Source: a phage. From it: a stretch of DNA of 64,000 nt. Positions 1 through 59,265 of the stretch are shown here, piece after piece. The stretch is from sequence record PX246730.1; one strand, 5' to 3'. Within the stretch, counting starts at the first letter, position 1; the number at the start of each line of letters is the position of its first letter. The translations under genes and the position numbers were made by a program. Under the pieces are notes generated by a model. That model was not told where the DNA came from. It saw only the letters and a program-made list of their open reading frames with translations, and made no database searches.

Positions 1-2292
1 ATGACACCTGAAATGTTCAGCCTTCTGAGTTCTGGTGTATACACGTTTAAAGAGCGAGCAGTGATTCGTGAACTGTCATGTAACGCAGTAGATGCTCAGA
101 AAGAAGCTGGAAAAGAAAACATCCCATTCCATGTGCATTTACCTACTCGATTTGAGCCTTACTTTGAAGTCCGTGACTTTGGAACTGGTTTAACCCATGA
201 CAAAGTAATGAATTTGTATATGAACTACGGGGCTTCTACGAAGAATGACTCTAATGATTACATTGGTGCAATGGGCATCGGCTCAAAGTCACCGTTTGCA
301 ATTGCTCAGTCATTCACAGTATCTAGCTATGTTGATGGTGTTGTTAATAAGTACTCTGTTTACCTTGAGAATGGCATCCCTCAAGTAACTAAGCTTACTA
401 CTAACCAAACAAATGAACCTAATGGCTTAGCTGTACGTGTGGCTGTTGCTGACCATCGTATTTCAAAGTTCTTTGAAGAGGCTGGTAACGTATACTCATA
501 CTTTGCTGTAAAACCAGAAAGTAATATTGTATATGATGACGTGTTAGCAGATATGAACGTCATTGCTCGTGAAGAAGGTGTTTATGATGCTATGATTCAT
601 AAGCAAAGCTGGCGTTCTAGTGGCAACAGGACAGAGTTTAATGTGGTGATGGGTAATATTGCCTATCCAGTGAGCATGGAAGCATTACTTGGTGATGATT
701 TCTTCAAAGTCTTGCCAGAATTTTTCCGTAGGAGCGTAGACCTTGTAAACATTTACATGCCTATTGGTTCAGTTGCTATTGCAGCTTCTCGTGAAGCATT
801 GCAGATGAATGATACGACAAAGAATGTTATCATCGAGGCTACCAAAAAGATAACTGAAGCAATTACAAGAGATGTTATTAAGGGAGTTAATAACCAACCT
901 ACACTCATGGATGCTGCACAGGCTTATGCTGAGTTACGTTTGAACTCACGAGAGATGTTTAATGCTGTGTGTCCAAAGTTAGAGTGGGGAGGCGTTAAGC
1001 TTGATTCTCTGGAAGAAGAATTACTAAACATTCGTCGTGGAATTATCTACGCAGAAGACGGCTCAGTCATCTATGAACGTGACGGCAAAGGCAATATTAA
1101 GGTTGATAGGAACGGGAACAACATCCCTAAAGTAGATTATCTTTATAACCCAGTTGCTTATGTCAAGTTCAACTCTTTAGAGAGTAAGATTCGTGCAACA
1201 GCACTTTCCTACACTCAAGAGGCAAGTATGTTCAATATCTTTGGTGCAATGCGTAAAAGCCAAATTGAACAGTTTTTGTTCGTGATTAATGACCGTCGCA
1301 ATAAAAACGGTACTGAGAAGACTGTAGGACGCAATCAAATCTTGCGTGGTGCATGTCGAGACTACGCTAATGAGTCAAGTCTGTTCCACAGATACAATGG
1401 TATTGTGTTTGTATTCTCGACTGAAAAAGAGTTAGATGATTTAATCAATCTACACAAACTTGATAAAAGCTTGTTGAAGATTGTGAAGATGTCTGATAAG
1501 GAACACCATTATCAGCGTAAAGAAGCTGTGAGGGGTGTTGTAAAACTCTGGAAAGCTGTTCCAGCAGAAGGTGTAGCTTCCTATAAAGAGGTTTCAGAAG
1601 ACTTAGATACGATTGAAGAGCCTCAACTTTATATTAAGGCAGTAGGTGACACAGTTGATGGCGAATGTTTTTGCTCATCTCCAGAAGATGTAGCTAAGTC
1701 AGTTGCTAATGTTACAGGGAAGACAGTCTATGTTTTCCGAAAAGCAAATTGGAAAAAGATACCAGAAGACTGGATTGAAGTAGATGAGAAACTCTTGAAC
1801 GACAGCTTAACTGATGTTCATTGGATTAATCATAACAGGTATATGACACGTATCTATATGAATGGTGTCCTTGACCTTACAAGCAGTTGGATTATTGCCA
1901 GAAACTTTACGTTCAATAACAGGAAGATTTCTCGTGGCTATTGCTATTCACGAGACACAAACAAAACTATCTTCTTAGAAGGTAATGAAGATGCTGTCGA
2001 GGCAATGTTTGGTAAAATCCAATACGTTGCTGCACCGTTTGCATACACTTACACTATTAGTGTGTTGAAGACTTTGAAAGACTGTCTTGACAATGATACA
2101 AAGCTGTACAAGAAAATTAAGAAAGCTGGTGACCGTATGGCCATTAAGGTGACAAACTACCTTTCAAAAAGAAAACAAGAAAACTTCTTGCTTTCTCATT
2201 TAGATTGGAATAAAGTGTCACCCGTCGAAGTGAGTAAGTTCTTAGGATTTGATGTGAAGTGTGTCCCAGAAGGGACTACAATTTACGATTAA
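1..2292 (+). CDS. rIIA: rIIA-like protein with GHKL/HATPase-type N-terminal domain; probably 5'-truncated at window edge
   Basis: 763-aa ORF; motifs RAVIREL..NAVDA, RDFGTGL, NDYIGAMGIGSKSPF resemble the T4 rIIA N-domain (recalled from memory); followed by an rIIB-like gene. Confidence 0.8.
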   Translation: MTPEMFSLLSSGVYTFKERAVIRELSCNAVDAQKEAGKENIPFHVHLPTRFEPYFEVRDFGTGLTHDKVMNLYMNYGASTKNDSNDYIGAMGIGSKSPFAIAQSFTVSSYVDGVVNKYSVYLENGIPQVTKLTTNQTNEPNGLAVRVAVADHRISKFFEEAGNVYSYFAVKPESNIVYDDVLADMNVIAREEGVYDAMIHKQSWRSSGNRTEFNVVMGNIAYPVSMEALLGDDFFKVLPEFFRRSVDLVNIYMPIGSVAIAASREALQMNDTTKNVIIEATKKITEAITRDVIKGVNNQPTLMDAAQAYAELRLNSREMFNAVCPKLEWGGVKLDSLEEELLNIRRGIIYAEDGSVIYERDGKGNIKVDRNGNNIPKVDYLYNPVAYVKFNSLESKIRATALSYTQEASMFNIFGAMRKSQIEQFLFVINDRRNKNGTEKTVGRNQILRGACRDYANESSLFHRYNGIVFVFSTEKELDDLINLHKLDKSLLKIVKMSDKEHHYQRKEAVRGVVKLWKAVPAEGVASYKEVSEDLDTIEEPQLYIKAVGDTVDGECFCSSPEDVAKSVANVTGKTVYVFRKANWKKIPEDWIEVDEKLLNDSLTDVHWINHNRYMTRIYMNGVLDLTSSWIIARNFTFNNRKISRGYCYSRDTNKTIFLEGNEDAVEAMFGKIQYVAAPFAYTYTISVLKTLKDCLDNDTKLYKKIKKAGDRMAIKVTNYLSKRKQENFLLSHLDWNKVSPVEVSKFLGFDVKCVPEGTTIYD

Positions 2293-2371: not shown

Positions 2372-3481
2372 ATGACTACTAAAACTAAAGCACAGATTGA
2401 CGCAGAAATTTACAAACTGGTTAAAGAGGGCAAGCTGACTAAAACAGCTATTGCACAGAAGTTCAATACTTCAACCCGTTCAGTTGGTCGTGCTGTAGAG
2501 CGTCATGAAGCAACTTTAAAAGGGAATAAGAAGGCGTCTTCTACACCAGCTACGAAGACTTTGAAGCAAGTTGCTAAGACCTTTAAAAAGAAAGCTGACA
2601 AACCAGTTGAAAAGATTGTTAAAGATGCTGTACAGAAAGCTCCAGTAAATAAACTGCACGAAGCTATGCAGAAAGATGACAAGATTGAGTACATGATTAC
2701 TGGTGACTCTGTAATTATGACTTACGGTTCAGAATCTGAAATTGTTGAGTCTACTCATCCGAACTATCAAGAGATTGTAGTTCATGTTGTGAAAGGTGAG
2801 TTTAAGAAAGCCTTTGAACTGATGAACATTCGTAAGTCTATCGAAAACTTCACTCAGGGTGCTATCACAATCAAAGGTGACAAGTTATTCTACGGTGCTG
2901 TTGAGATGCGTTCTACTCTGGTTGACCGTATTCTTCACATGATGAAGACTGGAGATAAAGGTTTCGAACGCCTTGTGATGTTCTTCGAAAAACTGATGGA
3001 AAACCCATCTAAAGATTCCGTAGAACAACTTTGGGGCTTCGTATCTCACCTTGATGTTGAAATTGATGAAGAAGGCTACATCATTGGTTGGAAGAAAGTA
3101 TCTACTCGTGAAGGCAAGCTGGTTGACTCCCACACCTACAGAGTACCTAATGATTTGGGTAACATTGTAGAAATGCCACGTTGGATGGTTGATAATAACC
3201 GTAACGTAACTTGCTCTCAAGGTCTTCATGTTGGTGCTTGGGATTATGTTCGTTGCTTCTCAGGTGATACCATCCTGAAGGTTCGTGTCCATCCACGAGA
3301 TGTTGTATCTGTACCAACTGATTACAACGATATGAAGATGCGTTCATCTCGTTATGAAGTTGCAGCAATCGTTGATAATCAGCGTAAAGTGCTGAAAGCG
3401 TGGGATGGTAAGACTGAAGCTTTGCATGTCATCGTTGGCACTGCTGGTGAACTCATCTCTCAACGTAAACGTGAAATCTAA
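2372..3481 (+). CDS. rIIB: rIIB-like protein
   Basis: 369-aa ORF directly downstream of rIIA; segment RSTLVDRIL..FFEKLMENPS resembles T4 rIIB (from memory); ATG preceded by AG-rich RBS. Confidence 0.7.
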   Translation: MTTKTKAQIDAEIYKLVKEGKLTKTAIAQKFNTSTRSVGRAVERHEATLKGNKKASSTPATKTLKQVAKTFKKKADKPVEKIVKDAVQKAPVNKLHEAMQKDDKIEYMITGDSVIMTYGSESEIVESTHPNYQEIVVHVVKGEFKKAFELMNIRKSIENFTQGAITIKGDKLFYGAVEMRSTLVDRILHMMKTGDKGFERLVMFFEKLMENPSKDSVEQLWGFVSHLDVEIDEEGYIIGWKKVSTREGKLVDSHTYRVPNDLGNIVEMPRWMVDNNRNVTCSQGLHVGAWDYVRCFSGDTILKVRVHPRDVVSVPTDYNDMKMRSSRYEVAAIVDNQRKVLKAWDGKTEALHVIVGTAGELISQRKREI

Positions 3482-3495
3482 TAAGTAATTTCTTA

Positions 3496-3522
3496 AAAGG
3501 CTGCTTCGGCGGCCTTTTTTAT
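3496..3522 (+). terminator. rho-independent terminator after rIIB
   Basis: GGCTGC-TTCG-GCGGCC hairpin followed by TTTTTT. Confidence 0.75.
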
Positions 3523-3550
3523 TTGTATTTTGTGCAGAGTGCTGTATAAT
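3523..3550 (+). promoter_or_regulatory. sigma70-like promoter (TTGTAT-N16-TATAAT)
   Basis: hexamers read directly; sits between terminator and next RBS. Confidence 0.4.
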
Positions 3551-3581: not shown

Positions 3582-4130
3582 ATGAAGAAATTGATTCTAG
3601 GTTTGTGCTTAATGTTTACAGCACACTTATCTTATGCAGTTGACTGCCCAGAGCTATCAATTAGCCAAAAAGTAAACATGTTAAAAGCTTACCAGTATGG
3701 TGAGAATAACATGGGTAAAGGTTGGGGTATCACTCTAGCTGCTATAGCCTTACAAGAGTCAGAGCTAGGTCTGAAGGTAGAGAATAAAAAGACACACGAT
3801 TATGGTATTTTCCAGAATCACTTGAAGACTGTTGTAAAGCGTAACAAAATCAGCCCTAATGTGGCTAAAAAGAAACTCTTAAGAGACTTTGATTATGCTG
3901 CGAAGGAAACTCACAAAGAGCTTGAGTTTTGGACAAAGGTGCATGGTCAGCCAAAGTCAAAGAAGACTTTACAAAAAGTTTTAGCATCATATAATGCTGG
4001 GTATTCGTACAGAATCCCTAAAGCTAAGAAATATTCTCAAGATGTCTATAACAACATGAAAGTCATTGCTCAATGTGAATTTGCAATAAACATTTCTAAG
4101 GTAAACCATGAAAAAATTAAAAAAGTCTGA
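3582..4130 (+). CDS. secreted lytic transglycosylase-like protein (SLT domain)
   Basis: N-terminal signal peptide MKKLILGLCLMFTAHLSYA; SLT motifs LQESELGL, GIFQNH, SYNAGYSY; RBS AGGAGA. Confidence 0.5.
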   Translation: MKKLILGLCLMFTAHLSYAVDCPELSISQKVNMLKAYQYGENNMGKGWGITLAAIALQESELGLKVENKKTHDYGIFQNHLKTVVKRNKISPNVAKKKLLRDFDYAAKETHKELEFWTKVHGQPKSKKTLQKVLASYNAGYSYRIPKAKKYSQDVYNNMKVIAQCEFAINISKVNHEKIKKV

Positions 4131-6831: not shown

Positions 6832-7617
6832 ATGGGTATTGTAAAAATAATCAATGGTGATATCTTTGCCGCATTTGATAAAGGTAAGTTTGACATCATC
6901 GGTCACGGTTGCAACTGTATGAATTTAATGGGTGCAGGTATCGCTGACAAGATTTCTAAACTTTACCCAAAAGCATATGAGACTGATACAGAAGTTTATC
7001 TGTATGCAGGTGGCATAGGTCACAAACCCTGTGAAAATTTACTAGGCAATTTCTCTGTAGCACGTTTAGAACAAGGCCGTATAGCTAACCTTTACACTCA
7101 GCTTAAGACTGGTAAAGATGCCCGATACAGTGCTTTAGAGTTATCTTTGAAACAACTTAACAGATACTGTGAAGTCAATCAGTTGAAGAAAGTCGGGTTA
7201 CCTATGATTGGTGCAGGTATCGGTGGACTTGACCCTCAAGCTGTCACAGTTATCATTAATCAGGTGATGAAGAGTGTAGATGTTTATCTATATGTCTATG
7301 AAGGAGAAATGTACCACAAGTTACGCTCAGGTTGGAAGAACTACTGTGAACCAGAATACTTTGCAGGTGTAGCAGTGTTCACAGATAACGCAGTTACCCT
7401 CTTCAGACGAAGAAAAGGTAAGATACATCAAAGTAACCCTCCGGTTGAAAAGATGTCTCTAAGTAACGCTCTAGTTACCCACCTGTCGAAGAGCAATCAC
7501 AGGATTGCAGTAACATTTGGCAGTGATGCAGATGCTTATATCTATGCAAGAACTGATGAGAATATTGAGACGATTTTCTCTTCACCAGAAGTTACCTTCT
7601 TAGACGCAAAGAACTAA
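6832..7617 (+). CDS. macro-domain (ADP-ribose binding/processing) protein
   Basis: 261 aa; macro-domain motifs NGDIF, GHGCNCMNLMGAGIA, LPMIGAGIGG. Confidence 0.55.
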   Translation: MGIVKIINGDIFAAFDKGKFDIIGHGCNCMNLMGAGIADKISKLYPKAYETDTEVYLYAGGIGHKPCENLLGNFSVARLEQGRIANLYTQLKTGKDARYSALELSLKQLNRYCEVNQLKKVGLPMIGAGIGGLDPQAVTVIINQVMKSVDVYLYVYEGEMYHKLRSGWKNYCEPEYFAGVAVFTDNAVTLFRRRKGKIHQSNPPVEKMSLSNALVTHLSKSNHRIAVTFGSDADAYIYARTDENIETIFSSPEVTFLDAKN

Positions 7618-7689
7618 GAAACTCTGTAAAATATTCACAATAGGTTAAGCCTTTCTTATCTGGTAAAATTTTCAGGTAAGGAGGGCTTT

Positions 7690-7868
7690 TTCATTTCAGA
7701 ATTGTGCAGGTAGAGTTCTGTAGAGAAATCTGTAGAGAGAATTTTGAACTCCAAAGAGAAAATTCATTTTCAAACTGTGCAGGTAATCTCCAAAGAGCTT
7801 TTTCATTTTCAAAACGTGCAGAGAAAATCAGGTCGGGCAAGAAAAATCATTTTAGAATTGTGCAGGTA
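7690..7868 (+). repeat. four direct repeats of a ~23-bp motif TCATTTTCARAAYTGTGCAGGTA
   Basis: copies at ~7690, 7763, 7801, 7846, read directly. Confidence 0.7.
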
Positions 7869-7884
7869 AATTTTTATAGACAGC

Positions 7885-7924
7885 CAGCCCAACCCCTCTC
7901 CCCCTCTTACTCCCCCTCTCCCCA
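7885..7924 (-). repeat. C-rich tract (CCCCTCTCCCCCTCTTACTCCCCCTCTCCCC); G-quadruplex-prone on the minus strand
   Basis: four or more G-runs of >=4 on the complement within 40 nt. Confidence 0.6.
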
Positions 7925-8044
7925 AAAGTCAAGAGAAAAATTTGTAGCGGATTGAAAAATAATTCTTGATTTGCGTTCTGTTTTGTGGTAGTCGTGCGCA
8001 CCCGTTTCATTACAGTTTTGCCAAAAATATTTTTAAAATTTTTA

Positions 8045-8104
8045 TTGACTCTTTGAACGTGGTTATCTAATATTTACATCAACGGGGAGGGAATGACCTT
8101 CCCC
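8045..8104 (+). promoter_or_regulatory. early promoter (TTGACT-N17-TAATAT) + 5' stem-loop A + conserved RBS leader
   Basis: hexamers; hairpin GGGGAGGGAATGACCTTCCCC; leader CCTAAACTGGAGATTCAAAAATG. Confidence 0.6.
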
Positions 8105-8136
8105 ACTAAATAAAATCCTAAACTGGAGATTCAAAA

Positions 8137-8325
8137 ATGGCATCAAGAAAAATTAAAGTTGGCGATGAGGTTAACATTAAGCACGAACACTCTTACAAAA
8201 TGCTAACTATACGCTCTTATAAGGTTTATCAGGTGGAAGCTATCCACAAAGATAATACTTTTTCCTTAAAAGGGTATAGCGAACGTTTCCCTGCTGAACT
8301 CTTTGAGAAATGGAGCGCGAAATAA
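8137..8325 (+). CDS. small protein, KIKxGDxV paralog family
   Basis: 62 aa; conserved leader/RBS; motif KIKVGDEV shared with ORFs at 10680 and 13068. Confidence 0.55.
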   Translation: MASRKIKVGDEVNIKHEHSYKMLTIRSYKVYQVEAIHKDNTFSLKGYSERFPAELFEKWSAK

Positions 8326-8531
8326 TGCTTTACAGTCGTGAATTGATGGTTACAACTAACGTTAACACAAAGGTAAAACGTTTTTACATGCAAATTTGTG
8401 ACGTATGGTCTAGAATATCAGAAGCTGACTATTGCAACTATGTAGAAACAGCTATAAACTCTAATTGCTACCTTACAAGAAATACTAAGAATTTTACAAG
8501 GCAAACAGCGATTTACTGTTACGATAAATAA
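8325..8531 (+). CDS. hypothetical small protein
   Basis: start ATG overlaps upstream stop (TAATG). Confidence 0.4.
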   Translation: MLYSRELMVTTNVNTKVKRFYMQICDVWSRISEADYCNYVETAINSNCYLTRNTKNFTRQTAIYCYDK

Positions 8532-8544
8532 AAGTACTTTACAT

Positions 8545-8573
8545 GGGGCTTATAGTTCGATAAAGTAAGCCCC
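8545..8573 (+). repeat. intergenic hairpin B (GGGGCTTA-13nt-TAAGCCCC), copy 1
   Basis: perfect 8-bp stem; same sequence found 5 times. Confidence 0.7.
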
Positions 8574-8620
8574 AGATAAAGAGCTTTACCAAATTAAACC
8601 TTAAACTAGGAGATTCAAAA

Positions 8621-9001
8621 ATGGCTTATCGTGCACCGAAATTCATCAACAAAGACAACTTCCGCAACGCACTGGAGAAGTCACTTGATGAAAAATTTAA
8701 CGGCAAATTGATTGTTGTTCACGCATTCAATTTTAAGTATGATGTAAACGGGAATAGAATCAACCATTACACGGCAACCATGTTAGATGGTACACTTTCA
8801 AGTGAAAAAGCCGTACTAAATGCACTGGCAGGACGTGGAAAGGTATTAGTAAGATGTGATAAGAGACGTTATCAGGGCGGCGCATATGGTTATGATGATG
8901 CTGTTTACCATCTTGAAAATATGGGCTATCAAGTAGAAAAAGCTGGAGCATCACAAATCATCGGCAGCGATGGTTATGTAACTATCTTCAAAATTAACTG
9001 A
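8621..9001 (+). CDS. hypothetical protein
   Basis: 126 aa; conserved leader ACTAGGAGATTCAAAAATG. Confidence 0.55.
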   Translation: MAYRAPKFINKDNFRNALEKSLDEKFNGKLIVVHAFNFKYDVNGNRINHYTATMLDGTLSSEKAVLNALAGRGKVLVRCDKRRYQGGAYGYDDAVYHLENMGYQVEKAGASQIIGSDGYVTIFKIN

Positions 9002-9016
9002 TAAAGTACTTTACAG

Positions 9017-9045
9017 GGGGCTTATAGTTCGATAAAGTAAGCCCC
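9017..9045 (+). repeat. intergenic hairpin B, copy 2
   Basis: identical stem-loop. Confidence 0.7.
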
Positions 9046-9090
9046 AGATAAAGAACTTTACCACTAAATCCTAAATTGGAGGACTTAAAA

Positions 9091-24998: not shown

Positions 24999-25025
24999 TG
25001 GTTACATAGAGTTTGAAAAGTTTAT

Positions 25026-25102
25026 CTCTGTTTAGCTCAGCTTGGTAGAGCGTTCCGTTTGGGGCGGTAAGGCCGGAGGTTCAAGTCCTCCAACAGAGAC
25101 CA
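25026..25102 (+). tRNA. tRNA-Pro(TGG)
   Basis: 7-bp acceptor CTCTGTT/AACAGAG, D-loop AGCTTGGTA, anticodon loop TTTGGGG, T-loop TTCAAGT, CCA encoded. Confidence 0.75.
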
Positions 25103-25109
25103 AATTAAT

Positions 25110-25187
25110 GTTCCAGTAGACAAAATGGTATAGTCACCACTCTTTCAAAGTGGATATTTGAGGGTTCAAATCCCTTCTGGAACGCCA
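25110..25187 (+). tRNA. tRNA-Glu(TTC)
   Basis: acceptor GTTCCAG/CTGGAAC, anticodon loop CTTTCAA, T-loop TTCAAAT, CCA encoded. Confidence 0.7.
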
Positions 25188-25192
25188 GTTTT

Positions 25193-25267
25193 GACAGAAG
25201 ACCAATTGCAGCAAACTTAATCTTATTCATCTGAAGGTAAATCGGACAAAGAAGAGATTTGGTCTGG
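25193..25267 (+). ncRNA. framed element a (ACAGAAGACC ... GGTCTGG closing stem)
   Basis: member of 4-copy family with covarying closing stem; function unknown. Confidence 0.3.
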
Positions 25268-25279
25268 TCATTAAGAATT

Positions 25280-25355
25280 GCGGGTATAGAGAAAGGGCGT
25301 CTCACATGTCTCATTAGCATGGTATCGGCAGGTTCGACTCCTGCACCCGCCTCCA
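25280..25355 (+). tRNA. tRNA-Met/Ile2(CAT)
   Basis: anticodon arm CATGT-CTCATTA-GCATG, T-loop TTCGACT; acceptor register ambiguous. Confidence 0.55.
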
Positions 25356-25360
25356 AATTT

Positions 25361-25436
25361 ACAGAAGACCGTTTACAGCAATACTTATTAAATTTTTAGC
25401 GGAAAAAATTGAAAGATACGGTCTGGTAATACTAAA
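25361..25436 (+). ncRNA. framed element b
   Basis: AGACCG/CGGTCT closing stem (compensatory change versus element a). Confidence 0.3.
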
Positions 25437-25439
25437 CAT

Positions 25440-25513
25440 GGTTAGGAAGCACATAAGGTATGTGCGGTCGCCTGTTAAGCGAATGGCACAGGGTTCGAAT
25501 CCCTGACTAACCG
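25440..25513 (+). tRNA. tRNA-Asn(GTT)
   Basis: D-stem GCAC/GTGC, anticodon loop CTGTTAA, T-arm CAGGG-TTCGAAT-CCCTG. Confidence 0.7.
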
Positions 25514-25525
25514 CAAAATTTAAAT

Positions 25526-25613
25526 GTGTCGTTATCCCGTAGATGGTAGCGGTGGGGACTGTAAATCCCTTGTCATTGAGACTCGGTAGGTTCGACTCCT
25601 ACACGGCACACCA
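25526..25613 (+). tRNA. tRNA-Tyr(GTA), long variable arm
   Basis: acceptor GTGTCGT/ACGGCAC, anticodon loop CTGTAAA, 15-nt variable arm, CCA encoded. Confidence 0.7.
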
Positions 25614-25674
25614 ATTTTGAGAGGGCTATTTAGCCCCTCCCTTAAAGAGTTCTTACGAGTATTCTTTAAAGGAG

Positions 25675-25748
25675 CAGAAGACCAAATACAGCAAGTTACT
25701 TAAAATTTCAAGCCAATTTAATTTTGAAAAATTTAAAACTTGGTCTGG
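25675..25748 (+). ncRNA. framed element c
   Basis: AGACCA/TGGTCT closing stem. Confidence 0.3.
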
Positions 25749-25760
25749 CTCAACAAATTT

Positions 25761-25893
25761 ACAGAAGACCGTTTACAGCAAAACTTAAACAATCTATTTC
25801 TCTGGTAAAGAAAAGGCGAAGGTTCGATTCCTTCACTCGGCAGATGTCGAGTTGGTGTAATGGTAGCACTTAAGATGATAAACAACGGTCTGG
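25761..25893 (+). ncRNA. framed element d enclosing permuted tRNA halves
   Basis: GACCGTT/AACGGTC closing stem surrounds 25797-25870. Confidence 0.35.
25797..25870 (+). tRNA. candidate circularly permuted tRNA-Thr(GGT): 3' half precedes 5' half
   Basis: 3' half = anticodon arm TTTCT-CTGGTAA-AGAAA + T-arm GAAGG-TTCGATT-CCTTC + ACTCGGC; 3 nt later 5' half GTCGAGT + D-arm GTGT-AATGGTA-GCAC; acceptor strands complementary at 7/7 with one GU. Confidence 0.4.
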
Positions 25894-25896
25894 TAA

Positions 25897-26036
25897 TTAT
25901 CTTTGTAGATAAGTTATTAAGCTTACCTGTGAGTATGCGACCACAAAGGGTGAAAGGGTAAATTCTAGATTTAAACCCAACAAGGCACATCGCTACAGAC
26001 CTTAAGCAAGTCTGGGTAGCTTATCTACAAAGATAA
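25897..26036 (+). ncRNA. ~140-nt element closed by 15-bp stem (TTATCTTTGTAGATAAG / CTTATCTACAAAGATAA)
   Basis: long-range perfect inverted repeat. Confidence 0.3.
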
Positions 26037-26042
26037 TTTAAT

Positions 26043-26118
26043 GGAAGTGTAGCAGAATGGTGATGCGGCAGACTTTTAATCTGACAGGCGATGGGTTCGA
26101 ATCCCTCCACTTCTACCA
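26043..26118 (+). tRNA. tRNA-Lys(TTT)
   Basis: acceptor GGAAGTG/CACTTCT, anticodon loop CTTTTAA, T-loop TTCGAAT, CCA encoded. Confidence 0.7.
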
Positions 26119-26122
26119 ATAT

Positions 26123-26199
26123 GGTTCAGTCGCAGATAAGGTAATGCAGGGGTCTCATAAGCCCTATGAATGTGGGTTCGATTCCCATCTGAACCTCCA
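26123..26199 (+). tRNA. tRNA-Met/Ile2(CAT)
   Basis: acceptor GGTTCAG/CTGAACC, anticodon loop CTCATAA, CCA encoded. Confidence 0.7.
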
Positions 26200-26201
26200 A
26201 T

Positions 26202-26277
26202 GCTGTGAAAGCACATATGGATGTGCATTCGGCTGATAACCGAAAGGAAGAAGGTTCGAATCCTTCTCACAGTACCA
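26202..26277 (+). tRNA. tRNA-Ile(GAT)
   Basis: D-stem GCAC/GTGC, anticodon arm TTCGG-CTGATAA-CCGAA, CCA encoded. Confidence 0.75.
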
Positions 26278-26290
26278 ATTTCAATAAAGT

Positions 26291-26319
26291 TGTTGACACT
26301 GAGATGTGACTACTTTATA
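26291..26319 (+). promoter_or_regulatory. strong sigma70-like promoter TTGACA-N17-TATAGT inside tRNA array
   Basis: read directly. Confidence 0.6.
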
Positions 26320-26526
26320 GTAACCTTAGTTTTCGTTGCGTAGCGTCTATTTTGCAAATTTAAAATAAATGCAAACGACAATGTTTTTCTGGCAGTAGCT
26401 TGATAGGCTAAACACCAGTGAGGTCTTCCAATCCCTCATCAAAGAATTTGGCGTACTAGCCCACGGTATGATTAATAAGGTGGGCATCTTTAAGGGCTTT
26501 CTAAGAGAGTCTTTAAAGATTAATTA

Positions 26527-26608
26527 CGGGGCGTATCTCATCTGTCTTCTAAACAGACGTTAACCGAGTAAGTGGAGTATGCGGGTTCGAGTCCTGCCGC
26601 CTCGACCA
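26527..26608 (+). tRNA. non-canonical tRNA-like element with Arg(TCT)-type anticodon hairpin and no recognisable D-arm
   Basis: acceptor CGGGGCG/CGCCTCG, hairpin TCTGT-CTTCTAA-ACAGA, 23-nt extra segment, T-arm GCGGG-TTCGAGT-CCTGC, CCA encoded. Confidence 0.4.
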
Positions 26609-26751
26609 ATTTAGTTAGCAGATTACTTAGACGACCTAAGCGGGTCTTCCTGTAGGGAGGTGGTCTGTATCTCATGTTTTCCAGAACATGTAAATAATCT
26701 GAGAAGGGGCTTTACAGTGTTGAGATAATACGGTAAGCTTCGAATTATAGT

Positions 26752-26834
26752 ATGGGACGATGTTAAGACTCTAAGGCATGAGCAACGGCTTCCAACACCG
26801 TTTCAAAGGGGTTCGACTCCTCCGTCCCATGCCA
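26752..26834 (+). tRNA. tRNA-Trp(CCA), atypical (extra nt between acceptor and D-arm)
   Basis: acceptor ATGGGAC/GTCCCAT exact, anticodon loop TTCCAAC, CCA encoded. Confidence 0.55.
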
Positions 26835-26847
26835 AAGTCTTATTAGG

Positions 26848-26935
26848 GGTAGGTAGCGGCTAATGGTAGCCAAACTGTCTTGAAAACAGTTGCCACTGTA
26901 GAGATACGGTGAGGGTTCGACTTCTTTACTTACCG
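26848..26935 (+). tRNA. tRNA-Ser(TGA), long variable arm
   Basis: anticodon arm ACTGT-CTTGAAA-ACAGT, 20-nt variable arm, T-loop TTCGACT. Confidence 0.7.
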
Positions 26936-27091
26936 CCTAATAAGATTTTAAAGCCAAGCTTCATTCGGATGTTGCTTTGGTATCCCTCGTGTTGTCGAAC
27001 ACACTAATAAAGCACCTAGTAGGTGTCACGGAGAAGAGATAATATCAAGCTCTCCAAAGGTTCTAGTCACCGGATTAAACAAGACTATGCA

Positions 27092-27112
27092 AAGACCTTT
27101 TTAGGTCTTTTT
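27092..27112 (+). terminator. hairpin AAGACC/GGTCTT plus T-tract inside tRNA array
   Basis: read directly. Confidence 0.45.
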
Positions 27113-27191
27113 AGAGGGCTTCTAAGGTTATTACAGCTTGTTGTGGAACCTTGTTGCTTAGGTTCTTAGAAGTTCTCTAAAAAGATTTAAT

Positions 27192-27269
27192 GGGAGATTG
27201 ACGGTAATTGGTAAACCTATCTCGCTTAGAACGAGATGTTTGAGGGTTCGAATCCCTTGTCTCCTACCA
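27192..27269 (+). tRNA. tRNA with anticodon TAG (Leu-type), short variable loop
   Basis: acceptor GGGAGAT/GTCTCCT (GU ends), anticodon arm TCTCG-CTTAGAA-CGAGA, CCA encoded. Confidence 0.6.
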
Positions 27270-27276
27270 AATTAAT

Positions 27277-27352
27277 GCAGGTGTAGCAAAATGGTTATGC
27301 GGCTGACTCTTAATCAGTAAGACGATGGGTTCAATTCCCTCCACCTGTACCA
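27277..27352 (+). tRNA. tRNA-Lys(CTT)
   Basis: acceptor GCAGGTG/CACCTGT, anticodon loop CTCTTAA, CCA encoded. Confidence 0.7.
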
Positions 27353-27358
27353 GATATT

Positions 27359-27434
27359 GGGGATGTAGTTTACATGGTTAAAACATAAGTTTTGCAAAAT
27401 TAAGTACAGGGTTCAATTCCCTGCTTCTCCACCA
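27359..27434 (+). tRNA. tRNA-Ala(TGC)
   Basis: D-stem GTTT/AAAC, anticodon loop TTTGCAA, T-arm CAGGG-TTCAATT-CCCTG, CCA encoded. Confidence 0.65.
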
Positions 27435-27440
27435 ATTAGT

Positions 27441-27515
27441 GCATCCATAGTTTAAACGGGAAAATTACAGTCTTCCAAACTGAGGTTGAGGGTTCGATTC
27501 CCTCTGGATGCTCCA
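27441..27515 (+). tRNA. tRNA-Gly(TCC)
   Basis: acceptor GCATCCA/TGGATGC exact, anticodon loop CTTCCAA, CCA encoded. Confidence 0.7.
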
Positions 27516-27521
27516 AATAAT

Positions 27522-27598
27522 GCTGCTTTCGTATAATTGGCTATTACACATCCCTTGTAAGGATGGAAATGCAGGTTCGAGTCCTGTGAGCAGCACCA
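27522..27598 (+). tRNA. tRNA-Thr(TGT)
   Basis: anticodon arm CATCC-CTTGTAA-GGATG perfect, T-loop TTCGAGT, CCA encoded. Confidence 0.75.
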
Positions 27599-27602
27599 AT
27601 TC

Positions 27603-27688
27603 AGAGGTCAAGTGAAAGACCGCTGGTGTCAACTGAAGACCGTAACAAATTCCACGGAGTTGAGTTAGCGGCACAACTTCAGACCTCT
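27603..27688 (+). ncRNA. framed element f (AGAGGTC ... GACCTCT) containing GAAGACCG motif
   Basis: long-range 7-bp inverted repeat between tRNAs. Confidence 0.3.
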
Positions 27689-27693
27689 TTCAC

Positions 27694-27768
27694 ACTCGCT
27701 TAGTTTATATGGTAAAACACCACCCTTACAAGATGAAGAAAAAGGTTCAAGTCCTTTAGTGAGTACCA
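27694..27768 (+). tRNA. tRNA-Val(TAC)
   Basis: acceptor ACTCGCT/AGTGAGT, D-stem GTTT/AAAC, anticodon loop CTTACAA, CCA encoded. Confidence 0.6.
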
Positions 27769-27769
27769 T

Positions 27770-27847
27770 GTTCCAGTATCCCAATTGGCAGAGGATGCAA
27801 GCTCAAACCTTGTACTAGTGACGGTTCGAATCCGTCTTGGAACACCA
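27770..27847 (+). tRNA. tRNA with anticodon CAA (Leu-type), short variable loop
   Basis: acceptor GTTCCAG/TTGGAAC, anticodon arm GCAAG-CTCAAAC-CTTGT, CCA encoded. Confidence 0.6.
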
Positions 27848-27852
27848 ATTTT

Positions 27853-27928
27853 GCAGGATTAGTTCAAATGGATAGAGCAACAGTCTACGAAGCTGTTAAT
27901 AGGGGTTCGAATCCCTTATCCTGCGCCA
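27853..27928 (+). tRNA. tRNA-Arg(ACG)
   Basis: acceptor GCAGGAT/ATCCTGC exact, anticodon loop CTACGAA, CCA encoded. Confidence 0.7.
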
Positions 27929-27947
27929 ATTTAAAGAGGCTATTTAG

Positions 27948-28505
27948 ATGAGATATTTGAAGTATGCTTCATGGATTTTCTTAGCTTTGTTAGAGCCATT
28001 TGCAGCAATCTTAGCAGTAATTTTAGCACCCTTTGTGGTTCCATTCTACAGTGAAAAGAAAGGACACTTACCTTTTGGATTCAGATGGATGGAGACTTAT
28101 GATAACCCAATTGATGGTGACAAAGGCCACGTTGAGAGATGGGCTAAGATTAGAAAGATTGGTAAGCTCGGTGTTTATATGCAGAGAGTTGGATGGCTCT
28201 GGAGAAACAAAGCTTATAACTTCTCTTACCATGTGCTAGGAAGAGATGTAAAAGATGTTACTAAGTGGAAAGGTAATATCAACGTAAGTTCTAACCCTGA
28301 AGATAATCAGACAGGTTATCTCCTAATGTGGAACAGTAATGCTTGGGGATTATTCGCTTTTACCCCATCAATTAAAATCTTTGGTAAACAATTCTACTGG
28401 AGAATTTATGTTGGATGGAAACTTAAAAGTGTTGTCCCAGAAGAAAGAGCATTCTCAAGGGAAAGAGTTATGTTGGCATTCTTTATTCATCCACTAAGAA
28501 AGTAA
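27948..28505 (+). CDS. membrane protein encoded inside tRNA array
   Basis: 185 aa; N-terminal TM IFLALLEPFAAILAVILAPFVVPF; ATG verified. Confidence 0.45.
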   Translation: MRYLKYASWIFLALLEPFAAILAVILAPFVVPFYSEKKGHLPFGFRWMETYDNPIDGDKGHVERWAKIRKIGKLGVYMQRVGWLWRNKAYNFSYHVLGRDVKDVTKWKGNINVSSNPEDNQTGYLLMWNSNAWGLFAFTPSIKIFGKQFYWRIYVGWKLKSVVPEERAFSRERVMLAFFIHPLRK

Positions 28506-28513
28506 AGATTTAA

Positions 28514-28589
28514 AGGGGATTAGTTTACAAGGTTAAAACCTCGGTCTTTGAAATCGAAGAAGTTGGTTCAATTCCAACATCCCCCACCA
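28514..28589 (+). tRNA. tRNA-Gln(TTG)
   Basis: D-stem GTTT/AAAC, anticodon arm TCGGT-CTTTGAA-ATCGA, T-arm GTTGG-TTCAATT-CCAAC, CCA encoded. Confidence 0.7.
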
Positions 28590-28591
28590 AT

Positions 28592-28670
28592 GCTCCATTA
28601 CTCCAATTGGCAGAGAGGCCAGACTTAAAATCTGTGTTATGTATCGGTTCGAATCCGATATGGAGTACCA
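28592..28670 (+). tRNA. tRNA with anticodon TAA (Leu-type), 7-nt variable loop
   Basis: acceptor GCTCCAT/ATGGAGT, anticodon loop CTTAAAA, T-arm ATCGG-TTCGAAT-CCGAT, CCA encoded. Confidence 0.55.
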
Positions 28671-28675
28671 AATTT

Positions 28676-28751
28676 AGCGGTATAGCATAACTGGCAATGC
28701 AGCAGTCTCTGAAGCTGTCCTATTAAGGTTCAAATCCTTATGCCGCTGCCA
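28676..28751 (+). tRNA. tRNA-Gln(CTG)
   Basis: D-stem GCAT/ATGC, anticodon loop CTCTGAA, T-arm TAAGG-TTCAAAT-CCTTA, CCA encoded. Confidence 0.7.
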
Positions 28752-28782
28752 CTTCTAAGGGTTCTTACGAGAGTCCTTAAAT

Positions 28783-28858
28783 GTGGCCTTATCATAAAAG
28801 GTAATGACCCATGCTGTGAACATGGTCTATACGGGTTCAAATCCCGTAGGTCACCCCA
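28783..28858 (+). tRNA. tRNA-His(GTG)
   Basis: anticodon arm CCATG-CTGTGAA-CATGG perfect, T-arm ACGGG-TTCAAAT-CCCGT, CCA encoded. Confidence 0.75.
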
Positions 28859-28863
28859 ATTTA

Positions 28864-28937
28864 TAGTCCAAGTAGCTTATATGGTAAAGCGCGTGTCTGA
28901 AAAACATGAGAAGAGGGTTCAAATCCCACTGGACTAC
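28864..28937 (+). tRNA. tRNA-Phe(GAA)
   Basis: acceptor TAGTCCA/TGGACTA exact, anticodon loop CTGAAAA; 2 extra nt before D-stem. Confidence 0.6.
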
Positions 28938-28955
28938 CAATTTCAAAGGTGCTTA

Positions 28956-29690
28956 ATGAAAGAGATGACAGAACAAGGTAAGGAGATTTTTAATCTCTTA
29001 AAAACCGGTAGAGGGTTTTCTAATCCCCTTATTACTGGTGCAGCAGTTCTCGGTGGAACCGTAGCTGCCTCTACATCACTTGTAAGCTCTATTAGCTCTG
29101 TAACAGACCCTACAATAAAAGATAAGCTTGTTGCTGCTGGGCTTACAACAGTCCTCCTAAACAGCTTTACAACAAGCCTGACAAGCACTACAGCAACTAC
29201 TAAGACCCTGACAGACTACGGTCAAAAGTCTATTGATGAGTTTTCATCACGTATGCAGGTAGCAAAGGGATACTCCAATGTTATGGGTGCAGCAGGAGAA
29301 CAAGTTGGTTGTACACCATTCAGTGGTATTATGGGTGTTGCTACAGAGTATGGTCAAAAAGCTATTGACATGATGAACAGTACACTAGATAGTGTTAATG
29401 GTGTGTTAAGTGACTTACAAGATGCTATTGATAAGGGTCTTGATACTGTTTCTGATTTAGCTAACCAAGCTGTTAGTAAGATTAATGAAGGTATCTCGAA
29501 GATTACAGCTTATGCAGATGAAGTTGTGCAGATGATTGAAGAAGAAGCTGCCCTTATTGCAGAGTACCTTAAAACGAATATCAATGGGTTCTTAGCAGGT
29601 ATCTTACCAGACTGGTTTGATGATGCCTGTAAAACTGGTGTAATTGACACTATTGCAACACCAGAAATGAAGAGCGCATTACAGAAATAA
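28956..29690 (+). CDS. hypothetical protein (Ser/Thr-rich N-region)
   Basis: track ORF 28740 reads through three tRNAs; start moved to first ATG downstream of tRNA-Phe. Confidence 0.4.
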   Translation: MKEMTEQGKEIFNLLKTGRGFSNPLITGAAVLGGTVAASTSLVSSISSVTDPTIKDKLVAAGLTTVLLNSFTTSLTSTTATTKTLTDYGQKSIDEFSSRMQVAKGYSNVMGAAGEQVGCTPFSGIMGVATEYGQKAIDMMNSTLDSVNGVLSDLQDAIDKGLDTVSDLANQAVSKINEGISKITAYADEVVQMIEEEAALIAEYLKTNINGFLAGILPDWFDDACKTGVIDTIATPEMKSALQK

Positions 29691-29691
29691 T

Positions 29692-29784
29692 GGAAGATTA
29701 ACCCTAAAAGGTAAGGGAGCAGTTTGCTAAACTGCCAGTAGCTGAGAAATCGGTGTACCAGTTCAAGTCTGGTATCTTCCTCCA
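29692..29784 (+). tRNA. tRNA-Ser(GCT), long variable arm
   Basis: acceptor GGAAGAT/ATCTTCC exact, D-arm CCC..GGG, anticodon arm GCAGT-TTGCTAA-ACTGC, 21-nt variable arm, CCA encoded. Confidence 0.75.
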
Positions 29785-29788
29785 ATTT

Positions 29789-29864
29789 GAATCCGTGACA
29801 GAAATGGATATGTGCCTGTCTGCAAAACAGGTTTATAAGGGTTCGAGTCCCTTCGGATTCTCCA
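29789..29864 (+). tRNA. tRNA-Cys(GCA)
   Basis: acceptor GAATCCG/CGGATTC exact, anticodon arm CCTGT-CTGCAAA-ACAGG, CCA encoded. Confidence 0.75.
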
Positions 29865-29901
29865 AGTTATTTTACTCTCTCTCAATTAAAATAATAATAA
29901 T

Positions 29902-57405: not shown

Positions 57406-57830
57406 TTATTTAGCAGATTTTTTATAAGGCTACTGCCATCCTTCCATACATTACCTTACCACACCCTACCATACCTAACCAAACTACACCATACCATACC
57501 TAACCAAACTACACCATACAATACCTTTTTAAAAGACCTTGTTTAAAGGCCTTTTAAAAAGGTAAGTCTCATTTTAATGTAGCTGAGACTAACTACCCAT
57601 ACATTACCTTACCATACCAGACCTCACCCTACCTTAACTTACCTTACTCTATCCTACCAAACACCACTTAAAAACCCTCTTAGAAGACTCTTAAGTGATG
57701 TAATCGGATTTTTATGTAGCTCCGATTAACTACCCATACCAAGCCTAACCTGACCGCACCAAACCTTACAACACCACACCATACCAAACCTCATTAAAAG
57801 ACCCTCTTAAAGACCTTTTAAAAAGGAGCC
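57406..57830. repeat. left copy of ~0.4-kb composite direct repeat (C/A-rich tracts, TTAAAAG boxes, covarying hairpins)
   Basis: near-identical blocks shared with 58965-59265. Confidence 0.7.
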
Positions 57831-58964: not shown

Positions 58965-59265
58965 GATTTTTTATAAGGCTACTGCCATCCTTCCATACAT
59001 TACCAAACAGTACCGTGCCACAACACACCATACCCAACCCCACCTAACTCTACCACACCTCATTAAAAGACCTTGTTTAAAGACCTTTTAAAAAGGTAAG
59101 TCTCATTTTAATGTAGCTGAGACTAACTACCCATACATTACCTTACCATACCGTACTTTACCTTACCGTACCGTACTTTACCCTACCGTACCGGACAATA
59201 CTTAACCCGACCTCGCCCTACCGGACATCACTTAAAAACCCTTTTAAAAGACTCTTAAGTGATGC
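58965..59265. repeat. right copy of ~0.4-kb composite direct repeat
   Basis: shares GGCAGATTTTTTATAAGGCTACTGCCATCCTTCCATACATTACC and GTCTCATTTTAATGTAGCTGAGACTAACTACCCATAC blocks with left copy. Confidence 0.7.

Follow-up and report, generated by a model that had tools for sequence, protein, structure and literature searches.

A subfamily-wide array of bipartite direct repeats at the edge of the terminal early block in a Felix O1-like phage

Four direct repeats in a non-coding gap of the phage genome analysed here (sequence record PX246730.1; the whole 64,000-nucleotide stretch is called the window) carry two short sequence blocks that scarcely vary among relatives. Judged from alignments, the array is under strong purifying selection and is the phylogenetic footprint of a functional cis element. 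The near-unchanged preservation of the motif across the subfamily Ounavirinae indicates that the four units are very probably docking sites for a DNA-binding protein. We tentatively favour sites for one dedicated, probably phage-encoded protein that would control transcription at the boundary of the terminal early block and at a promoter at 3545. The binding of a protein, its identity and its effect on transcription are what we infer from the sequence.

Felix O1-like phages are widely used in Salmonella typing, biocontrol and therapy, and their regulatory and replication signals are essentially unmapped. Conservation of the array far exceeds that of its neighbouring genes, and its position is precisely the border of the terminal early block. 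Knowing which protein binds the array would give access to one of three subjects in Ounavirinae (how early gives way to middle gene expression, where replication starts, or how the DNA enters the cell), and would show phage engineers which intergenic DNA to leave undisturbed. The array is unannotated in every record examined. The direct-repeat list of the Felix O1 genome paper includes other repeats and not this array, the PhageMaP Bas63 screen targeted genes only, and a literature search returned no paper pairing Felix O1-like phages with iterons.

The repeat units and their surroundings

By nucleotide identity, the window is a Felixounavirus (Felix O1-like) genome, 96% identical to phage ASO1A. 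Many Felixounavirus genomes match the array region (7500-8200) at 96-97% identity, and it has the same coordinates in Escherichia phage vB_EcoM_ASO1A. The array is placed in a 519-bp gap between a macro-domain gene upstream and the first small early gene (8137) downstream, and lies between the macro-gene terminator and the early promoters. The 3' stem and T-run of the terminator pass straight into repeat copy 1; the same terminator-then-array layout is seen in phiEa21-4 and in a second Kolesnikvirus locus (L135). The coordinates of all features are given in Table 1.

Table 1. Features of the array locus and related sites (window coordinates unless a locus is named)
Feature	Position	Strand	Sequence	Basis or details
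Solitary, weaker motif copy	3513-3542	+	CCTTTTTTATTTGTATTTTGTGCAGAGTGC	Best sub-threshold + strand matrix score in the genome, 8.9
Macro-domain gene, 261 aa	6832-7617	+		Pfam PF01661; PHROG 'phosphatase'
Intrinsic terminator of the upstream operon (macro-domain gene)	7647-7688	+		Terminator scan; annotated in ASO1A, KhF3 and wV8
Repeat copy 1, 22-nt unit	7691-7712	+	TCATTTCAGAATTGTGCAGGTA	
Repeat copy 1, 30-mer	7685-7714	+	GCTTTTTCATTTCAGAATTGTGCAGGTAGA	Cores TCATTT 7691-7696, GTGCAG 7704-7709
Repeat copy 2, 22-nt unit	7764-7785	+	TCATTTTCAAACTGTGCAGGTA	
Repeat copy 2, 30-mer	7758-7787	+	GAAAATTCATTTTCAAACTGTGCAGGTAAT	Cores 7764-7769, 7777-7782
Repeat copy 3, 22-nt unit	7803-7824	+	TCATTTTCAAAACGTGCAGAGA	
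Repeat copy 3, 30-mer	7797-7826	+	GCTTTTTCATTTTCAAAACGTGCAGAGAAA	Cores 7803-7808, 7816-7821
Repeat copy 4, 22-nt unit	7847-7868	+	TCATTTTAGAATTGTGCAGGTA	
Repeat copy 4, 30-mer	7841-7870	+	GAAAAATCATTTTAGAATTGTGCAGGTAAA	Cores 7847-7852, 7860-7865
Variable, strongly G/C-skewed tract	7871-7925			Alignment; column identity 0.68
Second conserved non-coding block	7926-7971		AAGTCAAGAGAAAAATTTGTAGCGGATTGAAAAATAATTCTTGATT	94-100% column identity
First early-cassette promoter	8045-8073	+	TTGACT-N17-TAATAT	Promoter scan; annotated in ASO1A
Homologue of the UAB_Phi87 DTR, about 0.6 kb	13834-14453			BLAST with the published DTR; 82% and 80% identity
Kolesnikvirus leftward promoter	L004 2774-2803; L135 6136-6165	-	TTGACG-N18-TATACT	Promoter scan

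The four repeats share one orientation. When they are anchored on GTGCA, their 30-mers align without gaps as G-[CTTTT/AAAAW]-TCATTT-N6/7-YGTGCAG-(GTA), from which the true unit appears to be longer (about 26-30 bp) and bipartite. Each unit consists of two 6-bp blocks that do not vary and whose centres are about 13 bp apart; the spacer between them is fixed in length and variable in sequence. The 19-nt pattern TCATTTTNNAANTGTGCAG matches exactly the four copies at 0-1 mismatch in the 64-kb window; elsewhere in the window only two unrelated matches occur, both at 3 mismatches, and six matches were reached in 0 of 100 shuffles. A position weight matrix built from the repeats was used to search an 87.6-kb genome composed of the window and the remainder from ASO1A. 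No further site scored 12 or more, and Markov-shuffled genomes peaked at 7.4 ± 3.6; as the matrix was trained on the four copies, the scan supports their uniqueness and not their existence. A reading of each unit as a promoter was ruled out, a -10 element at a consistent distance being absent.

These measurements amend several details of the earlier note, in which the array had been described from the letters of the window. The four direct repeats are present on the + strand where they had been placed, with a unit length of 22 nt in place of about 23. The literal 23-nt consensus matches one place only, even at 3 mismatches, because the units are 22 nt long. Start-to-start distances had been given as 73, 38 and 46 bp and are 73, 39 and 44 bp; the absence of a fixed period stands. 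The AAAGAG(N2)TTT context ascribed to every copy precedes copy 3 (AAAGAGCTTTTTC) and in part copy 2 (AAAGAGAAAATTC); the terminator stem and T-run (AAGGAGGGCTTTT) come before copy 1, and GGGCAAGAAAAA before copy 4. The TTGACT-N17-TAATAT promoter described about 180 bp downstream was recovered by the promoter scan, 177 bp after the end of copy 4.

The tract that follows the array is C-rich on the + strand (mainly at about 7884-7923), with a G4-like run on the - strand, in a genome of 38% G+C. At this position about half of the Felixounaviruses carry an unrelated allele with a G-rich + strand, and the C-rich form is retained by Moogle-, Susp- and Kolesnikviruses. The second conserved block, further right, may hold a weak leftward promoter (-35 TTGACT, 7932 to 7927; -10 TAAGAG, 7909 to 7904), which the promoter scan of the window did not call. 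At the equivalent position in Kolesnikvirus the scan calls a good leftward promoter aimed into the array. It stands back to back with the first early promoter, and its -35 and -10 elements are conserved with a differing spacer. The minus-strand 'promoters' called within the Kolesnikvirus array depend on its 37-bp period and are absent in the window phage. The 8045 promoter has an invariant A/T-rich upstream element at 8028-8037.

The early region beyond (8045-13360) is made of repeated promoter, stem-loop and RBS modules around small ORFs and resembles the mobile promoter/stem-loop cassettes of T4-type phages. One class of module comprises 93-nt units with a hairpin (GGGGCTTA...TAAGCCCC) and another comprises 51-79-nt units with a GGGAGGG...CCTCCCC stem-loop and a common RBS. 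The first gene after the array differs among relatives.

A solitary, weaker copy of the motif was located immediately after the terminator of the rIIB-like gene, which ends 32 bp before the site (gene coordinates 2372-3481). An SLT-like gene at 3582 has a hand-read TTGTAT-N16-TATAAT promoter, and this copy spans about -44 to -15 of it, covering the -35 element and spacer. The promoter has a good -10 (TATAAT) and a poor -35, and is absent from the scan calls. The operon beginning there terminates at the repeat array. The solitary site is kept at the orthologous junction in three genera (Felixounavirus, Suspvirus and Mooglevirus); in Moogleviruses it scores 21-24, and only about 1% of shuffled genomes reach 20. 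It was looked for and found absent in Kolesnikvirus. The matrix scan gave no motif in any of the other early-cassette promoters. The position of the solitary copy over the -35 and spacer of a promoter favours a transcription factor as the binding protein; the site could, on the other hand, share ancestry with copy 1 as part of a terminator-plus-motif module rather than a function.

Conservation across the Ounavirinae

The locus was sampled by way of the macro protein in 27 IMG/VR contigs together with GenBank records, and column identities were calculated from an alignment of 23 distinct Felixouna-, Susp- and Mooglevirus sequences. In this alignment the TCATTT and GTGCAG cores have column identities of 98.6-100% in each of the four copies, which bears out the conservation in relatives that the earlier note had proposed as a check. 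The corresponding values are 94% and 82% at codon positions 2 and 3 of the macro gene and 68% in the tract after the array (7869-7925). The inner spacer keeps its length and varies in sequence, each orthologous copy retaining its own spacer. Two invariant blocks, a free spacer and no compensatory changes together point to recognition of duplex DNA by a protein.

Four copies spaced 73/39/45 are found in the Felixounaviruses and, with the same spacing, in Suspvirus; in Mooglevirus the spacing is 75/41/45. Kolesnikvirus (phiEa21-4 and an MM7-like contig) has four copies spaced 37/37/39, with GTGCAT in place of GTGCAG. Three copies are present in Si3-like Salmonella phages. A divergent 88-kb metagenomic lineage, which is syntenic and shares 46-58% amino-acid identity, has four copies scored by the matrix and one degenerate copy recognized by eye. 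The spacings correspond to 3.5-7 helical turns of mixed phase in the window phage, Mooglevirus and Kolesnikvirus, and are neither tight nor regularly phased. In every lineage that carries it, the array follows the terminator of the macro-domain gene, and it is kept across genera while the neighbouring macro protein falls to 36-69% identity; between phiEa21-4 and Felixounavirus this protein is 36-42% identical and the array is still present. Among Kolesnikvirus, the Si3-like phages and the 88-kb lineage, some have a macro protein of just 36-46% identity. The intergenic region is matched by about 290 records, compared with about 303 Ounavirinae records counted by DNA polymerase. With a stringent two-unit pattern the array was found only in Ounavirinae-like viral contigs, and bacterial genomes gave only unrelated tandem repeats.

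Some of the records sampled have features of their own. In the divergent 88-kb lineage (locus L141, IMGVR_UViG_3300045988_063805, 560-760, reverse strand) TTAACA units, phased at about 11 bp, occupy some 150 bp after the array; the unit is the inverted form of the hexamer that fills the Felixounavirus terminal repeat, and the locus has no match among GenBank phages. Felix O1-like sequence at 86-92% identity occurs in the records 'Staphylococcus phage SA1' (GU169904.1, 147 kb) and 'Campylobacter phage A132' (MG065664.1), and both consequently look mislabelled or chimeric. One IMG/VR locus (L016) continues into unrelated G+C-rich sequence after repeat copy 3 and is probably an assembly chimera.

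A proposed binding protein and the competing readings

In the mechanism that we tentatively favour, one sequence-specific protein, most likely encoded by the phage, would read TCATTT and GTGCAG about one helical turn apart on double-stranded DNA. The array marks the junction between the rII-to-macro operon and the terminal small early genes with their sigma-70-type promoters; the operon that ends there is driven by the promoter whose core carries the single related site. Once made, the protein would occupy both the promoter site and the four-site cluster, and its occupancy would repress or insulate transcription across that junction. It might act on transcripts reading through from the upstream operon, on a leftward transcript into the array and/or on the promoter of the SLT operon. 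The single site and the cluster may also be bound cooperatively or be joined by a loop.

Several observations argue for such transcription control. The footprint is bipartite, with cores at 98.6-100% against 82% at codon position 3, and the array is found across genera and is near-universal in Ounavirinae. The sole other site in the genome lies in a promoter core (3513-3542) and is conserved in three genera. The array itself separates a terminator from promoters, is non-coding and gives no RNA signal, and the leftward promoter of Kolesnikvirus fires at it. Against this, the distance to the nearest called promoter (177-355 bp, copy 4 being the closest) is far for a classical operator, the other early promoters are without the motif, and the units are co-oriented and asymmetric, which is more typical of iterons than of operators bound by dimers. 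The solitary site of the window phage also scores low (8.9) and is missing in Kolesnikvirus. Phage regulators with dispersed asymmetric operators are known, such as P1 C1 with its 17-bp operators and phi29 p4 with sites between early and late promoters. The likeness lies in short asymmetric sites read as units, of which one overlaps a promoter core and others are clustered in intergenic control DNA; unlike those operators, the cluster here is more than 170 bp from the nearest promoter and the motif occupies only two loci in the genome.

A candidate regulator was not found among the scanned proteins. Searches of Pfam, PHROGs and NCBIfam detected no DNA-binding domain in 23 nearby proteins; the one exception is the N-terminus of the rIIB-like protein, which resembles an HTH below threshold. 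Comparing nearby proteins with PDB sequences did not point to a binder either. The rIIB-like N-terminus matches the ISL3 and IS21 transposase HTH below threshold (E = 0.0013 and 0.022), and its three-helix segment has a pLDDT of 60-72 within an otherwise poor model. Two single-sequence AlphaFold models (mean pLDDT 33.7 and 44.7) are too poor to use.

The suggestion of the earlier note that the repeats are operator or enhancer sites holds as far as a protein-binding cis element is concerned, given the conserved bipartite cores, the non-coding setting, the lack of RNA signal and the solitary copy in a promoter core. Control of the 8045 promoter is not established, as it lies 177-355 bp away and the motif is absent from the other early-cassette promoters. 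The anatomy agrees about equally with an origin or with a boundary for DNA entry. A host regulator, which the note had also entertained, finds no backing: similarity to DnaA boxes is at chance level in the window phage and E. coli genomes and plasmids contain nothing similar.

It is unlikely, in our judgement, that the repeats are iterons of a phage replication origin, at which an initiator or a protein-aided, transcript-primed R-loop would load a T7-type replisome near the A/T-rich, G/C-skewed stretch 7871-8044. Origins of related design are familiar: the lambda origin has four 19-bp O-binding repeats that act as iterons, the iterons of R6K and pSC101 are about 22 bp long, iterons are also found in T4 oriE, and the origins of T7 and T4 are primed by transcripts. 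The array resembles the lambda, R6K and pSC101 iterons in comprising a few (3-5) asymmetric direct repeats of about 20-30 bp (22-30 bp in the array), in one orientation at a single non-coding locus near A/T-rich DNA, conserved across genera. Its region is also one of two large non-coding regions noted on the arm, the other being the terminal-repeat region at 13.3-14.7 kb. The Kolesnikvirus promoter transcribes into it, and the adjoining A/T-rich blocks and G/C-skewed tract could stabilise an R-loop or a G4. The A/T-rich blocks coincide with promoter upstream elements, however, and the skewed tract is not conserved. The spacing of 37-75 bp is irregular, whereas iterons usually repeat tightly, at about every 22 bp. 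No adjacent initiator gene was found: the proteins scanned, which came from the surroundings of the array, the early cassette and the replication module, showed no Rep-, O- or RepE-like domain, and the primase-helicase, in a replisome that is T7-like, resembles T7 gp4 (Toprim and DnaB_C) with no origin-binding domain detected. The sign of the skew change is also wrong. On this arm, which is uniformly coded on the + strand, GC skew falls from +0.11..+0.19 to about 0 going rightward past the array, the opposite of what is expected of an origin. A more conventional place for an origin is the point at about 65 kb (DNA polymerase/primase) where the two gene arms diverge. The further site within a promoter core, a fifth, also fits an origin poorly.

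As an observation in its own right, the skew drop is located at about 7400 on the + arm (65 kb via the genome origin to 13.8 kb) and coincides exactly with the start of the early cassette; AT skew remains high.

By analogy with T5, the array might instead be an iss-like boundary for DNA entry. The right end would enter first, the early block would be expressed, and a bound protein would pause or anchor the DNA until early proteins act; we rate this as improbable. Transfer of T5 DNA stops at 7.9% of the genome, in a conserved untranslated repeat region past the pre-early genes (Davison, bioRxiv 10.1101/866236). The present array is 6.77 kb from the right physical end, or 7.7% of the genome length in the window phage, and 7.86 kb (9.3%) from the right end in an MM7-type Kolesnikvirus, the contig of which ends at DTR-like sequence. 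Only small early genes with sigma-70 promoters, transcribed toward that end, lie in between, and the array is placed just past the most distal promoter of the early block. Like the T5 injection stop signal (Repeat Region 3 of the left terminal repeat), it is a conserved untranslated repeat region past the promoters of a terminal early block and is more conserved than the surrounding ORFs. Kolesnikvirus units additionally contain a DnaA box at 1 mismatch (CTATGCACA). The T5 signal is within a 10-kb repeat and has inverted repeats and palindromes nested in one another, whereas the array consists of simple direct repeats and lies beyond the terminal repeat, here of about 0.6 kb; a search within the array found no inverted repeats or large palindromes. 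DnaA-box pairs are lacking in the window phage, and in the E. coli/Salmonella phages the similarity to DnaA boxes (2-3 mismatches) is at chance. The solitary promoter site would be left unexplained. We know of no report of two-step DNA transfer in Felix O1-like phages. A more specific version, to which we give very little probability, is that the array is the stop or anchor for a terminal domain, about 7-9% of the genome, that enters first and carries host-takeover genes, a two-step entry like that of T5 that would have evolved independently with another cis signal and protein.

An element acting at the RNA level is also very improbable. The repeats would be protein- or sRNA-binding motifs in read-through RNA, or would be read in an antisense transcript from a leftward promoter. 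All copies are on one strand, the array is immediately 3' of a terminator, and the Kolesnikvirus leftward promoter faces it. The terminator, though, should exclude most + strand transcription from the array, the window phage has a weak leftward promoter or none, and the solitary site is in promoter DNA that is not transcribed. A pattern in which the blocks stay invariant, the spacer varies and compensatory changes are absent also argues against an RNA element. A search of the array against Rfam gave only noise (E = 3.4-4.9) and no match even at E <= 5, and folding was no better than that of shuffled sequences on either strand (z = -1.1 on the + strand, mostly owing to the terminator, and +0.9 on the - strand). 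With both results negative, a known or structured RNA is not supported.

Least probable of all is that terminator/linker modules were duplicated and left these repeats behind as relics without function, in the manner of the adjacent mobile regulatory cassettes. The 10-nt string AAAGAGCTTT is common to the array and the 93-nt repeats of the early cassette, copy 1 and the solitary site each adjoin a terminator, and the copy number ranges from 3 to 5; decay would be expected of relics, yet the orthologous copies hold both cores at about 100% where the neighbouring protein is 36-69% identical, and the spacers and adjoining tract diverge while the cores do not. Promoter-early stem-loop (PeSL) mobile regulatory cassettes are known from T4-type phages. 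The neighbouring 8045-13300 region is similarly built of promoter, stem-loop and RBS modules, with which the array has the 10-nt string in common; unlike them, the array units have no promoter, stem-loop or ORF and are conserved as orthologous copies rather than shuffled.

The array is a subfamily-wide instance of a familiar class, the direct-repeat protein-binding arrays.

Rejected identities and other observations

Some further identities were considered and set aside. A protein-coding function was ruled out, as no ORF over the array is common to all lineages. Tiny CDSs are annotated over it in some records (wV8 gp13 and three pharokka CDSs), and the 50-aa ORF is absent from the window, the Moogleviruses and the Kolesnikviruses. 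DnaA boxes were ruled out in the window phage: the units are 2-3 mismatches from TTWTNCACA, which is the expectation for random A/T-rich 30-mers. Homology to plasmid iterons or host DNA was rejected, nothing similar being found in plasmids or E. coli genomes. The consensus sequences of CRP, IHF, Fis, marbox, sigma-E, sigma-54 and EcoKI give no convincing match by eye, an impression that counts for nothing as evidence.

A genome terminus or terminal repeat was also ruled out for 7690-7868. The genome ends of UAB_Phi87 have been mapped experimentally and its DTR is 608 bp (PMC4837284); the homologous sequence maps to 13834-14453, and the array is 6.0 kb to the left of it. The identical 1232-bp ends of record OR125561 are not genome termini either, since the duplicated ends start inside the macro gene and so represent an assembly overlap. 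The ends of several metagenomic contigs, 300-415 bp past the macro gene, are probably breaks in the assembly graph at sequence shared between strains.

The region around the DTR homologue (13270-14700, core 13834-14453) is the point at which the two gene arms converge. It comprises about 1.4 kb of non-coding, repeat-dense sequence with TTGTTA[A/G], TATAAAG and TAAAAGG motifs and many inverted repeats, and probably holds packaging signals.

Two other repeat-rich parts of the window were observed. A tRNA gene cluster at 25000-29900 is visible as families of T-arm repeats. Long degenerate ACC-rich repeats occur at 57418-57790 and 58993-59264, about 1.5 kb apart, with CCATACC/TTACC units behind heads of the form 'ATTTTAATGTAGCT...'.
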